Positions 54,492-64,000 of a DNA stretch of 64,000 nucleotides are shown in pieces. The notes under the pieces are model-generated. The model was given only the letters and a program-made list of their open reading frames with translations, ran no database searches and was not told the origin of the DNA. The stretch is from Candidatus Marinacidobacterium sp. (GTDB taxonomy: Bacteria > Acidobacteriota > Vicinamibacteria > Marinacidobacterales > Marinacidobacteraceae), in NCBI GenBank assembly GCA_965204755.1, contig OZ242011.1:2496001-2560000 (forward strand). The letters are read 5' to 3'. Positions within the stretch are counted from its first letter, which is position 1; each line of letters opens with the position of its first letter. The position numbers and the translations under genes are program-made.

Positions 54492-54593
54492 GGCCGCGCC
54501 GTTCGGCGCGCGAACGGCGCGAAGAAGGTGCGGCGGCGCTTCGAGATGGCGGGCAGCCTCTTCGGGGAGGTATTCGGTGCTCAGTCAGGTTGA
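54492..54593 (+). pseudogene. Start-less 3' remnant of a lost upstream gene (DUF262-like C-terminus)
   Basis: ANGAKKVRRRFEMAGSLFGEVFGAQSG* overlaps the next start and supplies its GGAGG; family assignment from recall. Confidence 0.45.
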
Positions 54594-55722
54594 GTTGCGG
54601 CTCTTCAAGTGCTTCGAGCACTTGCTGCTTCCGCTTGCCCCACTGACGCTGCTCACGGGCGCCAACGCGTCGGGCAAGTCGTCGGTTCTGCAGAGCCTCG
54701 TTCTGCTGCACCAGACCATTCGGGAAAACGAGAGGGCTTCGCGACTGGCGCTCAACGGCGCCGGAGTTCGCCTCGGGCGGGCGCCCGACATCGTGAACGA
54801 TGCGTCGGGGCGCGACCGATTCACCCTGGGACTGACGGACGGAGACGAACGAGTCGAGTGGACATTCGCCGGGGATCGCCACGAGAGGTCCATGGCCGTC
54901 GAATCCCTGAGCATCCGCGGTGAGCCGGTCGAGCCAGTTCCGGAACTTCGATACCTGCTTCCGGAGGACGAGTCCGCCCTGGGGCGCTTGGCCGGGCGCC
55001 TAAGAGGCCTGACCTATCTCACGGCGGCGCGGGCTGCGCCGCAGGGGACCTATGCCCTCGCCGATCCGCACTCGTCGGGTCTCGTAGGAGCGCAGGGGGA
55101 GTACGCGCCCGGCGTGCTGCACCGGAAGCGGGAGGAGCGAGTGGCGGGGGCGCTGGCGCTACCGGAGGGCCCGGAGGCGCTGTTTCCGCAAGTGGAAGAG
55201 CGAATGCGGACACTGTTTCCGGGTTTTCGGTTGGCTCTGGAGGAAGTTCCCGGAACGAGCGCGGTTTCGGTGGGGCTGCGGACATCGGAGGACACGGACT
55301 TCCACCGACCCGCGCACACGGGCTTCGGCCTCACGCGGTGTTTCCCGATCGTCGTGGCGGCGCTGGCAGCGGCAGACGGAGACCTTCTCCTGATCGAGAA
55401 TCCGGAACTGCACCTGCATCCTGCGGGACAGGCGCGGATGGGGCGGTTTCTCGCGGAGGTGGCGGCCGCCGGACGGCAGGTTCTTCTCGAGACCCACAGC
55501 GACCATGTGCTCAACGGCGTCCGGCGAGCGGTCAAGGATGGAAGGCTCGACGCGGAGGATGTCGCCGCGCACTTCTTCCGGCCCCGGTCGGAGGATCGTC
55601 CGCAGGTCGCGAGTCCGGCTCTCGACCGCGACGGGCGGATAGATCATTGGCCGCCGGGATTCTTCGACCAGTTCGACCGGGACGCCGGTTACCTCGCCGG
55701 GTGGAGCGACGGCGGCGCCTGA
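54577..55722 (+). CDS. ABC/AAA_21-type ATPase with DUF3696
   Basis: FKCF, TGANASGKSS, GFGL, IENPELHLHP, ETHSDH, WPPGFFDQ. Confidence 0.92.
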   Translation: MLSQVELRLFKCFEHLLLPLAPLTLLTGANASGKSSVLQSLVLLHQTIRENERASRLALNGAGVRLGRAPDIVNDASGRDRFTLGLTDGDERVEWTFAGDRHERSMAVESLSIRGEPVEPVPELRYLLPEDESALGRLAGRLRGLTYLTAARAAPQGTYALADPHSSGLVGAQGEYAPGVLHRKREERVAGALALPEGPEALFPQVEERMRTLFPGFRLALEEVPGTSAVSVGLRTSEDTDFHRPAHTGFGLTRCFPIVVAALAAADGDLLLIENPELHLHPAGQARMGRFLAEVAAAGRQVLLETHSDHVLNGVRRAVKDGRLDAEDVAAHFFRPRSEDRPQVASPALDRDGRIDHWPPGFFDQFDRDAGYLAGWSDGGA

Positions 55723-55723
55723 C

Positions 55724-55768
55724 TTGGAACTCGTCTTCAACGAACTCTCCCCGCGCGGCCAGTTCTGA
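55724..55768 (+). pseudogene. 14-codon 5' stub of a truncated downstream gene
   Basis: TTG 1 nt after the ATPase stop: MELVFNELSPRGQF*. Confidence 0.4.
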
Positions 55769-55778
55769 GGGGTCTTCG

Positions 55779-57035
55779 GTGAACCATCCGACCAGCCTGA
55801 CCTTGGACGAGGTGCGTTGCTTCAGCGGCGCCCGGACCGGACCGATCGGACGGATAACGGTTCTGATCGGGGACAACGGTACGGGCAAGTCCACCTTCCT
55901 CGGTTGTTACCGAGCCTTCGCCGAGTTGACCGGTTTCGATGACCTGCGAGACCGCAACTACTTCGACGCCGATCCGTTTCGGATGGGGAGGTTTCCCGAC
56001 ATCGCCCGCGACGGGGCCGGGGAGTTCGCCGTGGCGGGGGCTTTCGGCGGTCGCTGCCATGAGAGCGTGCGTATCGCGTTCGGTGACGGGGGCCGGGAGT
56101 ATCCGGAGGAACGCTCGATCTCGATCCGGCCGGCGAATGCGCCCCACCCGTTTCGCATCGAGAGGATTTGCGAAAGCCGGGAAGCGTGGAGGCTGGAGGG
56201 GCCCGGCTTTCGGTTCGAACTCGATGCCGCGGATGTGGACTGGCGGCAGATGACCACCTGGCTGTCTCTCCAGGTCCGCCACGGGCAGTTGCCGTTCCGC
56301 GGCGAACTCACGGAGTTGCGGAAACGGATACCGGGTATTTCCGCCGATCGACAAAACGCGTTCGCCGCGTTGGCCAACTATCTCGCGGGCCTGCCGTTCC
56401 CGAGGGAGTCAGCGCGCGTCGTCCCGCTCCAACCCGGTCCCGCCGAACGGCGCCGGCGCTACACGACGCTTCCGTACGCCGTGGACGATGGAGTCCTCGC
56501 CGAGCGCGTGGCAGCCATCGGCAGGGAGGTCGGCCTGTTCTCGCAGGTCGGGAGTTCCCCGCCGGGCCCCGACGGCGCGAGGGAAATCCGCGTCCGGACG
56601 CCGGACGGATGGCGGAACCTCATGGACGCGGGATACGGGGTCCATTCGGTCTTGGCTCTGCTCTTCGCCATCTGCGGACATGGCGATGACACGGCCTTCC
56701 TGCTGCAACAGCCGGAGGCCCGCATCCATCCGGGTGCGCAGGCGGCTCTCGCTACGGTCATGGCCTCGAGTCGCCAGCGTTTCCTGATCGAGACGCACAG
56801 CGACCACTTCGTGGACCGGTTCCGCATCTGCGTGATGGAGGGTGACCTGGAGCCCGAGGACTTGCAGATCCTCTATTTCGAGAAGGCGCAGGATGGCCGG
56901 GGTTCGACGATCCACGGGATCGGCGTGGATCGAAACGGCAACCTGGAGGGCGAGCCCCGCGAGTTTCGGAGGTTCTTCCTGGAGGAGATGGAGCGTCTCC
57001 TCGGCTTCGGTCGGTTGGAGCGCGAAATGGCCTGA
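55779..57035 (+). CDS. Second ABC/AAA_21-type ATPase (DUF3696-like)
   Basis: VRCF, GDNGTGKST, GYGV, LLQQPEARIHP, ETHSDH. Confidence 0.88.
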   Translation: MNHPTSLTLDEVRCFSGARTGPIGRITVLIGDNGTGKSTFLGCYRAFAELTGFDDLRDRNYFDADPFRMGRFPDIARDGAGEFAVAGAFGGRCHESVRIAFGDGGREYPEERSISIRPANAPHPFRIERICESREAWRLEGPGFRFELDAADVDWRQMTTWLSLQVRHGQLPFRGELTELRKRIPGISADRQNAFAALANYLAGLPFPRESARVVPLQPGPAERRRRYTTLPYAVDDGVLAERVAAIGREVGLFSQVGSSPPGPDGAREIRVRTPDGWRNLMDAGYGVHSVLALLFAICGHGDDTAFLLQQPEARIHPGAQAALATVMASSRQRFLIETHSDHFVDRFRICVMEGDLEPEDLQILYFEKAQDGRGSTIHGIGVDRNGNLEGEPREFRRFFLEEMERLLGFGRLEREMA

Positions 57036-57053
57036 CCGGCGGCGGGGCGGCGG

Positions 57054-58250
57054 TCAGGACTTCGGGGGGCGGGTTCCGCCGTTTGCTCGGTAGGCCTCGA
57101 TGGCGAAGTAGAGGGCGTAGAGGAGGTTGGGGAAGCGGTAGCGGCCGCGGGCCTCCGGATCGGCTACGAGGGCCTCGAGTTTTCGCATGCGGCGGAGGAA
57201 GTTGTCGAGCACTCGCCGTTCGTGGGTCGTCAACCTCGGGATCAGTTCCGCCCGACGAAACTCGAACCGGGGTTCGTCGGAAATCTTCCGCAGGATGGAT
57301 CGGTACCTCTCGCTGCGGATCGCTTGGAAGACTTGGGGTTCGAGGAGTTTCGAGCCGACGACATCGGCCGCCAGAGTGATCCCGAGAGAAATGTCCCGAG
57401 CGGTGATCGTCGGGCCTGCCGCCGATCGCCACACGGCATCGCCGATCTCGTGGGCGAGCACCGGCAGCCCGCCGGAGAAATCCACGAGGGGTTTCAGGCC
57501 CCGGTCCTCGACCTGTGCGTCTCCGGCGGCGAACGACTTCCGGAAGAACTCAAGCGTTTCCGCCGGAGACCACGGTGCGATTTCGATCAGGTCGAAGACA
57601 CGGGCGAGCGAGGGCTGTTCCCGGATCATGCGTTGGCGGCGCTCTTCGATGCCCACGAGCAGGAGGCACAGGCGGGAGTCGTCGTAGGCGATGGCGAGTT
57701 CCTCCAGCGAACTCTTCAGCCAATTGGCGAATTCCCACGATTCGGCCAAGCCGTTGATGTCGTCGAGGATCAGCACGAGGGACTTCCGTTCGGGCTGGAG
57801 GCCCTGGACGATCTTGTGGACTCCTGGGACGAAGCGGTCGCGAAGGTCCGCCATTTCCGCCGGCCGAAGGGCGAGTTGGACGCCGAACATCCCGGCGGAC
57901 TGCACGCGTTCCCCGAAGATTTCCGCGATTTTCTGGAACCAGGGCCGCGTAGCGTTCTGTTCCACGAGGTGTTCCCAAGTGCGGGCGACCATGCGATTGA
58001 GGTCGGCGGCGCCTCCGAGCGGCACATAGCATCCGGCGACTTCGTCCAGGCTTTCGACGGCCTGCCGGGCGATCCGGGCCACGGTGCTCTTGCCCATCCC
58101 TCGCTCGCCGGTCACGAACCCGGCCACTACCTGTCCCTTGGCGCTCGCGCGCGCCAAGCCGCGAATCCGCTCGATGGCGTTCTCCCTGCCGACGATCGCC
58201 TCGGTCAGGGGGAAGCGACCCGGGCGGAACGGAGACGAGTCGGGGTTCAC
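57054..58250 (-). CDS. AAA_16/STAND-like ATPase with C-terminal winged helix
   Basis: SPFRPG, VGRE, GERGMGKST, LILDDING, SGGLP. Confidence 0.88.
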   Translation of the reverse strand: MNPDSSPFRPGRFPLTEAIVGRENAIERIRGLARASAKGQVVAGFVTGERGMGKSTVARIARQAVESLDEVAGCYVPLGGAADLNRMVARTWEHLVEQNATRPWFQKIAEIFGERVQSAGMFGVQLALRPAEMADLRDRFVPGVHKIVQGLQPERKSLVLILDDINGLAESWEFANWLKSSLEELAIAYDDSRLCLLLVGIEERRQRMIREQPSLARVFDLIEIAPWSPAETLEFFRKSFAAGDAQVEDRGLKPLVDFSGGLPVLAHEIGDAVWRSAAGPTITARDISLGITLAADVVGSKLLEPQVFQAIRSERYRSILRKISDEPRFEFRRAELIPRLTTHERRVLDNFLRRMRKLEALVADPEARGRYRFPNLLYALYFAIEAYRANGGTRPPKS

Positions 58251-58497: not shown

Positions 58498-61299
58498 GTG
58501 CCGGGCCGTTTTCGTTTCGTTGTTCTCGCGACGCTTGCGTCGGTCGGGTTGGGGGCGGGGGGCGCGGTGGGCGGGCAGGCGGGGGGGCCGGAGGCGGGGC
58601 GGGCGGCGGAGACCTGGCATTGGGTGCAGAAGTTGCAGACCACCGGGTCGGTGCTGCAGATCACGGCGCATCCGGATGACGAGGACGGGGGGCTGCTGGC
58701 GCTGCTGGGCCGGGGGCACGGGGCGCGGACTTCGCTGCTGAGCCTGACTCGGGGGGAGGCCGGGGCGAACGCGATCGGGCCGGAACTGTTCGATGCGCTG
58801 GGGGTGATCCGGGCGGGGGAACTCGAGGTCGCCGGGCGGTGGTACGGGCTGGACCGGATCTACTTCACGCCGCTCGCGGACTACGGGTATTCGAAGAGTC
58901 TCGAAGAGGCGCAGCGCTCCTGGGACGAGGAGGCGGCGGTCGCGGATGTGGTGGAGGTGATTCGGCGGGAGCGGCCGCTGGTGGTCCACGCGCGGTTCGA
59001 CGGGACGCCCGCCGACGGGCACGGGCAGCACCGGTTCGCCGGGCGGGTGGCGGCGCGGGCGTTCGAGGCTGCGGGCGATCTCGCGGCGTTCCCGCCGCGG
59101 GAGGGGCGGCGCGGGTACTTGCCGGGGGCGCTGTTCGTCTCCGTTCGGGGCGGGGGCGAATCGGGCGGGGGCGAAGTGGCGCTGGATCTCTCGGGGTCGC
59201 GGCCTTGGCTCTCGCGGTCGTTCGCGGAACTGGGCGCGGTCGGGCTTTCGGTCCAGCGGTCGCAGACGCGGGGCGTGGTTCGGGAGGCCGGGCCGGGGGG
59301 CCGGCGGCGGGTGGCGCGGCTGCGGCGGGTGGACGACGGGGCCGGCGGACTGGCGGGCGGCGCCGGCGGACTGGCGGGCGGCGCGGGCGGACTGGCGGGC
59401 GGCGCGGGCGGGGTGGAGGGGGTTTCGGCGGACCTGCTCGGGCTTCTCTCGCCGGAGAACGCCTCGCTCTCCGCGCGGTTCGGGGCGGTGGTTCCGGCGC
59501 GGCTGGGGGAGGCGCTTCGGGAGTTGGACGAGGCGTTCGCCGGGATTGCGCGGGACTTCGACTGGACGGCGCCGGAGGCGAGCCTGCCGGCGCTGGGCGC
59601 GGCGCTCGCCGGGGCGCGGGCGCTGCTGGGGGAGCGGTCGCCGTCGGGGTTCTTCGATGTGCGGCGCGAGTTGACGGTGAAGGAGCGGCAGTTGGAGGCG
59701 GCGGTCCGGGCGGCGGCCGGGGCGCGGATCTCGGCGACGGCGCGGCCGGTCGGGGCGGGTGACGAAGGGGCGGGTGACGAACCGGTGGGGGCGTTCGGGG
59801 CGCCGGTCGCCCTGGGGCCGGTGGTTCCGGGGCAGGAGGTCGAGGTGGCGGTCTGCGCCTCGGCGCTCGCTCCGGCGCGGGTGGAGGCGGTGCTGGTCGA
59901 AGGGCCGGGGGAGGTGGTCGAGATCGCTCCGGGGGACGCCGGCGGGGATGGCGCGTCGGCTTGCGCGGGCTTTCGGGTCGCGGTGGCGGCGGACGCCGCG
60001 CCGTTCGCGTATCCGGTCCGGCGCGACTCCATCGGCGAGAACCGCTACCGGACGGTCGGGGACTGGAGCCGGGGGGCGCCGCCGGCGGCGTTCACGGCGA
60101 CGGCGCGGCTGGCGATTCCCCGGGCCGGGGGCGGGGAGGTGGAGGCGCCGCTGGTGGCGGCGGTGGAGCGGTTCGAGTCGAACCTGCCCTACGGGTACGA
60201 GCGGCGGACGCTCGAGGTGCTGCCGCCGGTGTCCGTCCGGTTCGAGCCGGACTTCGCGGCGCTGCCGGCGGGGAGGGGCGAAGCGGAGTTCGCCGCGGCG
60301 CTTACCGCTACGGGGCGCGCCGCCGGGGAGTACCGGGTGGCGCTCGCGGCGCCGGAGGGGTTCCGGGCGGAACCCGAGTCGCAGGTCGTCCGGTTCGACC
60401 GCTCCGGGGAGACGGCGCGAGTGGAGTTCACCGTATCCGCCGCCGGGCTGGCCGCGGGCGGGGCGTCGCCGGTGATCCGGGCGACCGTCGCTCCGGTCGG
60501 GGTGTCCGGCGGCGCTTCGCCCACCCCGGCGCTCGGCTATGCGCGGATCGCGCACCGCGACCTTCCGCTCGGCTACGACATCCGCCCGGCGGCGCTGCGG
60601 GTGGCGGTCGCCGACCTCGCCCCGCTGCCGGAGGGGTTGCGGGTCGGCTTCGTGAGCGGCGCCGGGGACCGGGTGGCCGAGGCGGTGCGGGCGCTCGGCG
60701 CGGAAGTCGTCCCGCTCGACGACGAGGACCTGGCGAGCGCGCCGCTCGACGGGTTCGACGCCGTGCTCCTCGGGACCCGCGCCTACGCCTTCCGGCCGGC
60801 GCTCCACGCCGCGAACCGGCGGCTGCTCGACTACGCCCGCGGCGGGGGGCACCTGGTCGTCCTCTACAACACCGAGGAGTTGGTTCCGGCGGAGCACGCG
60901 CCCTATCCGGGGACGCTGCCGCGCCGGTCGGAGGAAGTCTCCGAGGAGGACGGCGCGATCACGATCCTCGCGCCCGACCATCCGCTGCTGGCTTGGCCGA
61001 ACCGGATCGGGGAGGAGGACTTCGCGGGGTGGGTGGAACAGCGCGGCTCCAAGTTCTGGAGCGAGTGGGACGCCGCCTACACGCCGCTGTTCGAGGCGAA
61101 CGACTCCGGCCAGCCGCCGCAGCGGGGCGGGGCGCTGACGGCGGAGACGGGGAGCGGGCGGTACACCTACTTCGCCTACGCCCTCCACCGGCAACTGCCG
61201 GAGGCGGTGCCGGGCGCGTTCCGGCTGCTGGCGAACCTGGTCGCGGCGCGTCGGTATCCGGGTTCGGGGGCGGGTTCGGGGCCGGGGGGCGGGCGGTGA
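58498..61299 (+). CDS. PIG-L family deacetylase with Ig-like (NEW3) and class I GATase-like domains
   Basis: Signal peptide, AHPDDED, TRGEAGAN, DYGYSKS, HGQH, RQLPEAVPGAFRLLANL. Confidence 0.9.
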   Translation: MPGRFRFVVLATLASVGLGAGGAVGGQAGGPEAGRAAETWHWVQKLQTTGSVLQITAHPDDEDGGLLALLGRGHGARTSLLSLTRGEAGANAIGPELFDALGVIRAGELEVAGRWYGLDRIYFTPLADYGYSKSLEEAQRSWDEEAAVADVVEVIRRERPLVVHARFDGTPADGHGQHRFAGRVAARAFEAAGDLAAFPPREGRRGYLPGALFVSVRGGGESGGGEVALDLSGSRPWLSRSFAELGAVGLSVQRSQTRGVVREAGPGGRRRVARLRRVDDGAGGLAGGAGGLAGGAGGLAGGAGGVEGVSADLLGLLSPENASLSARFGAVVPARLGEALRELDEAFAGIARDFDWTAPEASLPALGAALAGARALLGERSPSGFFDVRRELTVKERQLEAAVRAAAGARISATARPVGAGDEGAGDEPVGAFGAPVALGPVVPGQEVEVAVCASALAPARVEAVLVEGPGEVVEIAPGDAGGDGASACAGFRVAVAADAAPFAYPVRRDSIGENRYRTVGDWSRGAPPAAFTATARLAIPRAGGGEVEAPLVAAVERFESNLPYGYERRTLEVLPPVSVRFEPDFAALPAGRGEAEFAAALTATGRAAGEYRVALAAPEGFRAEPESQVVRFDRSGETARVEFTVSAAGLAAGGASPVIRATVAPVGVSGGASPTPALGYARIAHRDLPLGYDIRPAALRVAVADLAPLPEGLRVGFVSGAGDRVAEAVRALGAEVVPLDDEDLASAPLDGFDAVLLGTRAYAFRPALHAANRRLLDYARGGGHLVVLYNTEELVPAEHAPYPGTLPRRSEEVSEEDGAITILAPDHPLLAWPNRIGEEDFAGWVEQRGSKFWSEWDAAYTPLFEANDSGQPPQRGGALTAETGSGRYTYFAYALHRQLPEAVPGAFRLLANLVAARRYPGSGAGSGPGGGR

Positions 61300-62495
61300 G
61301 CGGCGAGGCGGCGGCGCCTCCGGTGCGGCGGGTGCGGCGCGAGGACTGGCCGGAGGGGCGGGAGGTGGTGCTGGTGGGGACGGCGCACATCTCGCCGGAC
61401 TCGGTGCGGCTGGTGCGGGAGACCATCGAGCGGGAAAAGCCCGACGGGGTGTGCGTGGAACTCGACCGGGGGCGGTTCGAGGCGCTCATGGACCCGGCGC
61501 GGATCGAGCGGCTCGACCTGAAGCAGGCGGTGCGGGAGCGGAAACTGCTTCCGCTGATCGCCGGGGTCGCGCTCGGGGCCTGGCAGGCGCGGATGGGGCT
61601 GCGGTTCGGGGTGGAGCCGGGGGCGGAACTGCGGGAGGCGGCGCTCGCCGCCCGGGAAGCGGGGATCCCGGTGCACCTGGTGGATCGGGAGGTGCGGGTG
61701 ACCCTGCTCCGGGTCTGGCGGCGCGCCGGGTTCTTCCAGAAGATGCGGCTGCTGGCCGGGGGGCTGGAGAGCGGCGGGGGGGCGGAGGCCGCGCTGGAGA
61801 CCGAGGAGGACCTGAAGCGGCTGGTCTCCGCCGATGTAGTGTCGCGGCTGGTCGCGGAACTGGGGGAGGCGTTCCCGACGCTGAAGTCGGTGGTGATGGA
61901 CGAGCGGGACGCCTGGATCGCGGACGCGGTGCGGGAGACCGGGGGCGGGCGGCTGGTGGCGGTGGTCGGGGCCGGGCACCTCGACGGGGTGGAGCGGCGG
62001 CTGCTGGGGGACGAGCCGGTGGACCGGGCGGAGTTGGCGGAAGTCCCGCCGCGCGGGCGGCTGGCGCGGTGGATCGGGGTGGCGATCCCGCTGGTGATCC
62101 TCTCCGCGCTCGGCTGGACCTGGGTGACCCGGGGGGCGGCGGCGGCGTCGGAGGGGGCGCTGTTCTGGGTGGCGGTGAACTCGATCCCGGCGGGGCTCGG
62201 GGCGGCGGCGGCGCTGGCCCACCCGCTGACGGTGCTGGCGGCGCTGGTCTCCGCGCCGTTCACCAGCCTCACGCCGGTGCTGGGGGCGGGGTATGTGACC
62301 GGGTTCGTCCAGGCCTGGGTGCGCCCGCCGCGGGTGTTCGAGTTGCGCGCGCTGCGGGAGGAGGCGCTGGCGCCGCGCAAGTGGTTCACCAACCGGGCGC
62401 TGCGGATCGCGCTGGCGTTCCTCCTGCCCACCATCGGGAGCGCCGTCGGCACCTTCGTGGGCGGCTCGCGGCTGATCGGGGGGGCGCTGGGCTGA
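61296..62495 (+). CDS. TraB/GumN (TraB pheromone-shutdown type) protein
   Basis: LVGTAHIS, VCVELD, PGAE, DERD, VVGAGHLDG, C-terminal TM segments; GTGA overlap. Confidence 0.92.
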   Translation: MSGEAAAPPVRRVRREDWPEGREVVLVGTAHISPDSVRLVRETIEREKPDGVCVELDRGRFEALMDPARIERLDLKQAVRERKLLPLIAGVALGAWQARMGLRFGVEPGAELREAALAAREAGIPVHLVDREVRVTLLRVWRRAGFFQKMRLLAGGLESGGGAEAALETEEDLKRLVSADVVSRLVAELGEAFPTLKSVVMDERDAWIADAVRETGGGRLVAVVGAGHLDGVERRLLGDEPVDRAELAEVPPRGRLARWIGVAIPLVILSALGWTWVTRGAAAASEGALFWVAVNSIPAGLGAAAALAHPLTVLAALVSAPFTSLTPVLGAGYVTGFVQAWVRPPRVFELRALREEALAPRKWFTNRALRIALAFLLPTIGSAVGTFVGGSRLIGGALG

Positions 62496-62527
62496 ACGGG
62501 GTAGGGGCTGGGGCATTCAACGGAGGT

Positions 62528-62624
62528 GTTGACAACGGTTTTGTTGACAACAAGTTAGTTGACAACCATCGGGTTGACAACGGAGGTGTTGACAACTAAT
62601 ATGCTGACAACAAATCCGTTGAAC
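62528..62624. repeat. Array of the 9-bp palindrome GTTGACAAC with 6-nt variable spacers (15-bp period)
   Basis: Exact copies at 62528, 62543, 62558, 62573, 62588; GCTGACAAC at 62603; GTTGAAC at 62618. Confidence 0.95.
62574..62602 (+). promoter_or_regulatory. Sigma70-type promoter embedded in the array
   Basis: TTGACA (62574-62579), 17 nt, TAATAT (62597-62602); GGGAGG RBS before ATG 62636. Confidence 0.65.
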
Positions 62625-62635
62625 GGGAGGTCCCC

Positions 62636-63868
62636 ATGGAATCCAGAACGGGCAGTTGGGTAACCGGCGACGACTTTTTTGGGCGCGAGACGAACCTCAG
62701 GATCTTGGGGATGAAGGTTCGAGAGCAGAACCATGTGCTGCTCAGCGGCCCGCGACGCATTGGGAAGACGAGCGTCGCTCAAGAACTCGGTCGGCGCCTC
62801 GCCGAGGAGGGCTGGACTTTCCTGTACCTCGATGTGGAGCACGTCGGCACTCCGGAGGAGTTCGTTCTGGAGTTTGCCGCTCGGATGTGGGAGGCGCGTC
62901 CGCTCTGGAAACGCCGTCTGTTTGGAATCGGGCGATGGGTCGGCGCACAGGCGGGAAGAGTCAAAAAGGTGGGCGCCGCCGGAACCGCAGTCGAGTTGCA
63001 CCGCGAAATGGAGCGCGGGACATGGCGCCAGCGCGGGGACCGGCTGTTCCGGCAGTGCGTCGAGTCGGGCCGCCGGGTCTTTTTGGTGTTGGACGAGTTG
63101 CCTCTCTTCTTGAAGCGCTTGCTGGAGAGTGAAGGGGGCAGGGGTTCCGTGGAGTTGTTCCTCAGTTGGCTTCGGGGGACACTCCAGATGATTGAGCGCA
63201 ACTCGCCGGTCCTGTTGATCAGCGGCAGCATGGGGCTGTATCCGTTCGTGGAGCGGCTTCGCCTCACCGACCGCATCAACTACCTGTCGCCCTATCGCTT
63301 GCAACCTTGGAGTCGAGAGGAGAGCATCGAGTGTCTTGACGCCTTGGCCGCGGCTCACGGGATTACTTGGGCGCAGGGCGCGGCGTCCGACGCGTATGAC
63401 AGACTCGGTGAAGGGAATCCCCATCAGATCCAGTGCTTCTTCGCTGCGCTCCGGCAGTACGTGCTCGGACAGGAAGACTCTCGGATCACTTGCGAGGACA
63501 ACGCGGCCGTCTATCCGCAACTCCTGCTGCCGGGCGGTCAGAACGACTTGGCCCACTACCAGCACCGTCTGGAACGATCGTTGGACGCCGAGGACTTTGC
63601 CATCGCGATGGAGATCTTGGTCGAGACCGCGAACAAAGGCGTCTTGGGGAGATCGAGGCTCATGGCTTTGGTCGCCGGCCGGGACGGGCGCGAAGTGGAC
63701 GTGACGGAGCGCGTCCGCAGCGTTCTGGACATGTTGATGCACGACGGCTATTTGAGTCAGGATGAGGAGTACTGCCTTCGTTTCACTTCTCGGCTGCTGC
63801 AGGACTGGTTCTCCACGAGACCGGCTGGCCAGCGAGACCGCGACGCTTCGCGAGGTTCGACCCGATGA
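62636..63868 (+). CDS. STAND-like/archaeal-type P-loop ATPase
   Basis: DFFGRE, GPRRIGKTS, LVLDELP, ISGSMGL, C-terminal LMHDGYL...LLQDW winged helix. Confidence 0.9.
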   Translation: MESRTGSWVTGDDFFGRETNLRILGMKVREQNHVLLSGPRRIGKTSVAQELGRRLAEEGWTFLYLDVEHVGTPEEFVLEFAARMWEARPLWKRRLFGIGRWVGAQAGRVKKVGAAGTAVELHREMERGTWRQRGDRLFRQCVESGRRVFLVLDELPLFLKRLLESEGGRGSVELFLSWLRGTLQMIERNSPVLLISGSMGLYPFVERLRLTDRINYLSPYRLQPWSREESIECLDALAAAHGITWAQGAASDAYDRLGEGNPHQIQCFFAALRQYVLGQEDSRITCEDNAAVYPQLLLPGGQNDLAHYQHRLERSLDAEDFAIAMEILVETANKGVLGRSRLMALVAGRDGREVDVTERVRSVLDMLMHDGYLSQDEEYCLRFTSRLLQDWFSTRPAGQRDRDASRGSTR

Positions 63869-64000
63869 GCGAACCAATGGGTCGTGTCGTTCGGAAATTC
63901 AACCCGGGGACGCTCCAGAGTGACGAACATATCGTCGAGCAGTTCGTCGTTCGTCGCGTGGAGTTGCGACTCATCATGGAGACGCTTCGCAGCAACATCG
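63865..64000 (+). CDS. 5' end of a coupled second gene, probably another STAND-like ATPase (runs off window)
   Basis: ATGA overlap; MSEPMGRVVRKFNPGTLQSDEHIVEQFVVRRVEL; open to the edge; Walker A not yet reached. Confidence 0.65.
   Translation, partial: MSEPMGRVVRKFNPGTLQSDEHIVEQFVVRRVELRLIMETLRSNI

Follow-up and report, generated by a model that had tools for sequence, protein, structure and literature searches.

We found that an array of seven palindromes upstream of two adjoining ATPase genes in Candidatus Marinacidobacterium sp. is a real, conserved cis-element, and we consider with good confidence that its most likely role is that of self-operator sites read by ATPase2, the second of the two encoded proteins. 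The array lies in a window of 64,000 nucleotides (contig OZ242011.1, positions 2,496,001 to 2,560,000), the whole stretch of DNA that was analysed and to which positions refer unless stated otherwise.

Seven dyads over a putative promoter

The array occupies positions 62518-62621, without an assigned strand, and is called a putative operator array from its sequence, its conservation and a weight matrix. It consists of seven CAAC-N6-GTTG palindromes at a 15-bp period, or 1.43 helical turns, starting at 62518, 62533, 62548, 62563, 62578, 62593 and 62608, of which six are perfect and the one at 62593 has one mismatch. The original prediction had taken GTTGACAAC as the repeat unit, and its five exact copies (starting at 62528, 62543, 62558, 62573 and 62588), its single-mismatch copy (62603), its 15-bp period and its list of spacers were all reproduced. 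The partial copy was present as well, except that such copies border the array at both ends. The unit itself had been mis-phased: GTTGACAAC is a mere junction between neighbouring CAAC-N6-GTTG copies, and the conserved phase is that of the dyad. Nor are all spacers AT-rich, as had been stated, while their divergence is indeed close to random (mean pairwise identity 0.29).

In the whole 3.98-Mb genome, which has a GC content of 71.7%, one further exact GTTGACAAC occurs, and no second tandem of the CAAC-N6-GTTG dyad was found. Since single contigs spanned the array in three of four runs, which came from different studies and of which one is perhaps the source of the assembly, an assembly artefact was ruled out. 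Among strains, one lacked exactly one 15-bp unit and two showed a spacer change, with the cores unchanged in all. CRISPR repeats and spacers are each longer than about 20 nt, and a CRISPR array was rejected because repeat and spacer together make up only 15 nt in every unit of the array.

A sigma70-like promoter is embedded in the dyads, with a putative -35 hexamer TTGACA (62574-62579, plus strand) at the junction of dyads 4 and 5 and a putative -10 hexamer TAATAT (62597-62602, plus strand) in the spacer of dyad 6, both assigned by consensus match only. The two hexamers are 17 nt apart and match the consensus at 10 of 12 positions, and they form the sole promoter-like site in 62400-62750, where shuffled sequences led us to expect 0.1; this is the pairing of the copy-4 TTGACA with TAATAT that had been proposed. 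A Shine-Dalgarno-like GGGAGG (62625-62630, plus strand, from sequence) precedes ATPase1 (62636-63868, plus strand), which family and sequence matches identify as a 410-aa AAA_16/ATPase_2-type P-loop NTPase whose Walker A and Walker B are both intact, the latter reading DE in 79 of 79. The 847-aa ATPase2, the likely operator binder, starts at 63865 on the plus strand with a 4-nt overlap with the ATPase1 stop and runs through the window's end at 64000 to G000:C1:2562408.

The array sits between ATPase1 and a traB/gumN-family gene (61179-62495, plus strand, start approximate), the left neighbour of the insertion site and itself outside the element, while a sodium-solute symporter-like gene, named by inspection, lies downstream of ATPase2. 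Because 10 of 19 relatives pass from traB directly to the symporter, the ATPase pair is an inserted cassette; one relative, of the same genus, has the ATPase pair with a five-site array after traB, and the other eight have other sequence there or end. Within the phylum, the cassette was found in 15 of 401 genomes. At the same site, relatives L022, L029 and L033 carry other, unrelated genes, which suggests an insertion hotspot.

Other elements of this genome were noted in passing. On the minus strand at 54577-58250, 4-8 kb upstream, another islet of lower GC content comprises two ATPase genes of the AAA_21/DUF3696 type together with one more of the AAA_16/ATPase_2 type, and a distant ATPase family is represented at G000:C1:541000-548500 by at least five paralogs in tandem, which have no operator array. 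A separate family of arrays on G000:C1, outside the window, has the core GAATTGTGTATAG and a period near 20 bp, with 100 exact copies in 13 clusters (e.g., 357893, 756030/756317, 1207949/1208236, 1659955, 2045498, 2895447/2895743 and 3494174) that are often paired 290-370 bp apart; they may represent a small mobile element or an array for protein docking.

Conservation of the dyads across homologous cassettes

Rather than being absent from related loci, the motif and its period were present at homologous ATPase loci across phyla, where the dyads are conserved together with the cassette. We compared 99 distinct 170-bp upstream regions, the window's own included, from genome loci, metagenome hits (the best 80 of 350) and four plasmid loci, all mutually related and chosen by score. 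In these regions, AAC-N6-GTT occurred 205 times, against 6.3 (maximum 11) in 30 shuffles, with at least one occurrence in 81 and at least two in 70 of the 99. Only the 6-nt spacer was enriched, spacer lengths of 2-5 and 7-10 being at background, and three sets of control windows held 0 dyads in 79, 4 in 87 and 4 in 99. The distance between neighbouring dyads was 15 bp in 104 cases and 16 bp in 12. In twelve of the 99 regions, no CAAC dyad occurs even when one mismatch is allowed, and several of these regions bear other palindromes; the automatic operator caller was mis-phased in AT-rich or weak loci, so that some labels were set by eye and then checked. The usual number of sites per locus is 2-4, and the seven in the window, the longest run among those compared, appear to be an expanded form of this layout.

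The dyads are conserved at the cassette's own promoter across orthologs, as is expected of an autoregulatory operator. A promoter consensus was found in 51 of the 99 upstream regions as compared to none of 79 control windows, and wherever a region had a promoter as well as dyads, which was so in 45, the dyads lay over or beside that promoter, either directly upstream of the -35, over the hexamers or across the start region. By established promoter logic, we infer from this placement a repressor layout. The commonest dyad-promoter offsets in homologs, -11 and +4, are those in which the junction serves as the -35. A polymerase decoy, one of the functions originally put forward, does not fit the homologs, most of which have GTTGSCAAC at the junction and their -35 in another place. 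Downstream of the cassettes, 44 windows yielded a single dyad, so the idea of a scar left by repeated insertions is not supported, for want of matching sites at the far end. The sole operator-like pair among these 44 stands directly after the ATPase2 stop at locus L165 (G444).

When the genome collection was scanned blindly for three exact GTTGACAAC copies, 11 loci emerged, of which two precede an orthologous ATPase pair in gammaproteobacteria, one precedes a distant single ATPase gene, one lies beside a remnant of that same gene, and seven are near-identical tandem repeats, mostly within open frames as read by eye. With a weight matrix built from 12 other loci, the window's array ranked first genome-wide and no regulon was found elsewhere in the genome, the three sites checked among the next-best single ones lying in open frames. 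The tandem-dyad pattern also turned up at three loci with neither ATPase, two of them in open frames, and was there taken as chance.

Candidate reader of the dyads

The evidence points to ATPase2 as the likely binder, because the sites persist where ATPase1 is absent and because one arginine in the recognition helix of ATPase2 tracks the innermost operator base, though over too few changes for significance. The original prediction had the array bound by the winged helix of the downstream ATPase; an operator over the promoter and a (predicted) winged helix within the cassette are retained from it, whereas the binder is more likely to be the second ATPase than the one immediately downstream. STAND NTPases are built from a P-loop NTPase, a GxP helical domain, a winged helix and then superstructure-forming repeats, and in this broad sense ATPase2 has the architecture of the class. 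It comprises a STAND/Orc1-like NTPase, a MarR-like winged helix (about residues 300-375) and TPRs, with an invariant Gly257, a nearly invariant Pro259 and a degenerate Walker B that reads E/D-N. Its predicted structure (mean pLDDT 78.5) has DNA-bound Orc1 as the top structural match (E 3.6e-10, TM 0.45) and also matches PAB2304, SSO1545, Apaf-1, CED-4 and NRC4; the MarR-type matches are weak and, within the cassette, fall on ATPase2 only, in its winged helix. With S at 94%, R at 91% and a basic wing, the recognition helix looks DNA-binding. TPRs of highly variable length follow the winged helix in 33 of the 41 C-terminal parts that were scanned; none of the 41 yielded a credible effector or enzymatic domain, and the NTPase itself begins at the N-terminus.

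All four stand-alone ATPase2 loci (L154, L155, L161 and L199), which have no adjoining ATPase1, keep the sites, and an ATPase1 profile, run against the one genome and two plasmids that hold L154, L155 and L161, found no match there. L163 and L166 were excluded from this count, since the genome they share carries an ATPase1 at another contig end. Furthermore, one genome holds three paralogous cassettes with three operator variants and three helices. Arg338 was found at 78 of 78 loci whose half-sites have an inner C and at none of eight whose half-sites end in T or A; two of these eight were found after the hypothesis had been formed, and the non-C labels were partly read by eye once the loss of the arginine had been seen. 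Eight of 94 rows were left out of this comparison as unassigned, including L203, which has no Arg yet keeps C in three of six half-sites, and L141, which has Arg together with left half-sites ending in T. With the helix left out of the tree, residue and base made four concordant changes, of which only three independent pairs fall on well-supported branches (sign test p 0.25). In a first covariation test, an ATPase1 column separated the groups nearly as well (0.97 versus 1.0). The match of GWC/GSC junctions to Arg330 was dropped as evidence because it reflects a single clade event, inseparable from clade history. The same GTTGWCAAC array also occurs at L006, upstream of a distant single ATPase whose helix is different and unrelated.

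If ATPase2 is the reader, each dyad would be bound by two of its winged helices, one per half-site in adjacent major grooves, and Arg338 would touch the G of the innermost C:G pair. With the 15-bp period, one pair would sit roughly across the helix from the next, which would let these large proteins pack cooperatively, and their occupancy of the -35/-10/+1 region would repress the cassette's own promoter. Most speculatively, a ligand sensed by the variable TPR array might release the DNA and induce the operon or, equally speculatively, the trigger might be a nucleotide state set by ATPase1, whose Walker B is intact. The cassette could then be a sensor-repressor (ATPase2) with an active partner (ATPase1), which we suggest only weakly.

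It is unlikely that the sites are instead bound by ATPase1, or by an obligate ATPase1-ATPase2 complex comparable to the archaeal Orc1 heterodimer. ATPase1 is the gene that adjoins the array, ATPase2 comes after it in 78 of the 79 loci whose sequence extends far enough, the two are at most 20 nt apart at 75 of 81 junctions, and single ATPases with a C-terminal helix have tandem palindromes of their own, as judged by eye. The C-terminal region of ATPase1 is likewise winged-helix-like, but it is acidic, with no conserved basic residue and no match to an HTH family, and the dyads are retained at loci where no ATPase1 was found. Upstream of the single ATPase_2-type genes at L168-L179 (G441 and relatives), which belong to a third family, each tandem palindrome is a different one, and self-operator arrays may be a general trait of these ATPases.

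The winged helix of Orc1/Cdc6 reads origin recognition boxes (ORBs), and with its archaeal members (PDB 2v1u, 2qby) ATPase2 shares the NTPase plus winged-helix module and the repeated DNA sites. An iteron- or ORB-like origin or the end of a mobile element, on which an Orc1/Cdc6-like ATPase acts in replication or transposition rather than in transcription control, would agree with this closest fold, with the patchy insertion of the cassette between housekeeping genes and with the cumulative GC-skew minimum of the genome, which lies 20 kb from the array (window position about 42300, G000:C1:2538292) and is broad. Such a role is nevertheless very improbable: the sites here are short palindromes that flank promoter hexamers, ATPase2 carries TPRs, neither ATPase matches the Orc1/Cdc6 family model TIGR02928, and dnaA, at 1.82 Mb, is 0.73 Mb away from the array. 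The far end of the cassette has no comparable sites, no regular transposase or integrase neighbour was seen (of 103 neighbours scanned at E 1e-40, a single one was an IS630), and no homologs of ATPase1 were found in viral contigs.

A host regulator such as SufR might own the sites, given that the SufR consensus of Synechocystis and Streptomyces, in the available part of 10.64898/2025.12.26.696629, is the identical CAAC-N6-GTTG dyad. We regard this as highly improbable, as the SufR protein and its target are unrelated to the cassette, SufR had no matches in this genome (89% complete), the weight matrix showed no regulon outside the array, and the sites travel with the cassette across phyla and vary with its helix. 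Hardly any credence can be given to an origin by slippage or from a VDNxx coding repeat: the genome is rich in short tandem arrays, most blind-scan matches were of this kind and one strain differs by a whole unit, but the dyad cores are fixed while the spacers are near random, stop codons interrupt both VDN/VVN frames inside the array, promoters divide the homologous arrays, and position, spacer length and the palindromic make-up of spacers are conserved across phyla. Slippage may be the origin of the copy number, not of the motif.

Relation to defence operons and known regulators

Three of the four stand-alone ATPase2 genes stand head-to-head with anti-phage operons, with the sites in between, which is a small, raw count. 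Opposite two of them, one from Sphingobium, lies a Pycsar cyclase operon that includes E1-E2 genes and, in one case, JAB and TIR as well, and one, in G700, faces a complete BilABCD (the pairs being L155/L195, L154/L196 and L161/L197); the three fall in two separate clades. The fourth lies opposite a 119-aa ORF. At paired loci, neighbours are mostly housekeeping genes, and, again as a raw count, 7 of 49 selected neighbour ORFs had PADLOC matches. Judged from gene arrangement, this raises the possibility that stand-alone ATPase2 is a new class of defence regulator. Only tentatively, ATPase2 proteins might be one-component immune regulators, i.e., NLR-like STAND-TPR proteins whose core winged helix binds DNA sequence-specifically in the manner of Orc1 to repress their own promoter together with a head-to-head Pycsar or Bil operon, until a phage product sensed by the TPRs causes release.

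In the available text of PMC9122601, the WYL protein BrxR/CapW is a repressor on inverted repeats beside defence operons. Stand-alone ATPase2 loci share this layout, the putative sensor of ATPase2 being a TPR array behind the NTPase; no WYL domain was found in ATPase1 or in the C-terminal parts of ATPase2. As a separate observation, a WYL-domain gene (2850-3758 of L148, a Segatella plasmid) directly precedes a distant ATPase pair. The best overall fit to ATPase2 came from the MNS-type archaeal ATPases SSO1545 (2fna) and PAB2304 (2qen), with a TM of 0.55-0.56; these are also the best sequence match to ATPase1, but they are single genes without TPRs, and no operator was found for them in the searches made. 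Overall, array and cassette resemble an autoregulated winged-helix repressor with tandem operators.

MalT and AfsR are activators with a separate terminal DNA-binding domain. The parts available of PMC13581612 and PMC5760070 describe MalT, GutR, AfsR and IniR as STAND transcription factors that combine an NTPase with a TPR-like sensor, IniR binding DNA through a separate C-terminal domain (PMC5760070). By contrast, the sole DNA-binding candidate in ATPase2 is the winged helix inside its NTPase module, in a repressor-like layout; no LuxR or SARP domain was found in ATPase2, its only HTH match being internal, which sets it apart from the MalT/LuxR/SARP regulators. Avs and other defence STAND receptors likewise join an NTPase to a variable TPR array, as the accessible portion of PMC13581612 has it, whereas ATPase2 differs from them in having no effector before the NTPase or after the TPRs; neither it nor ATPase1 matched a PADLOC or NCBIfam family. 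That portion, which covers 589 STAND clades and mentions transcription-regulator STANDs, contained no mention of DNA binding through the core winged helix that we encountered, and five homolog accessions were not found in the supplements searched, though its clade tables may still include the family. Other STAND/ORC-Cdc6 ATPases are treated in PMC12839542, as far as its accessible text goes. No description of this cassette or its operators was found in a literature search largely confined to openly accessible journals.

From sequence and predicted structure, we infer that ATPase2 is an undescribed STAND-TPR regulator with a self-repressing operator array, its binding and repression being predictions. 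An uncharacterised cross-phylum ATPase-TPR family thereby gains a defined DNA site, a candidate binder and a prediction at the level of a single residue. Should a winged helix within a STAND module read DNA, the tie between Orc1/Cdc6 initiators and NLR-like receptors would be one of function in addition to fold. Orthogonal repressor-operator pairs could be drawn from the natural variants of the operator. Control of Pycsar and Bil operons by the stand-alone forms would add a sensor-type member to the few known defence regulators, and, should these forms indeed act as immune regulators, pattern recognition would be wired directly to transcription through a code of one residue and one base.
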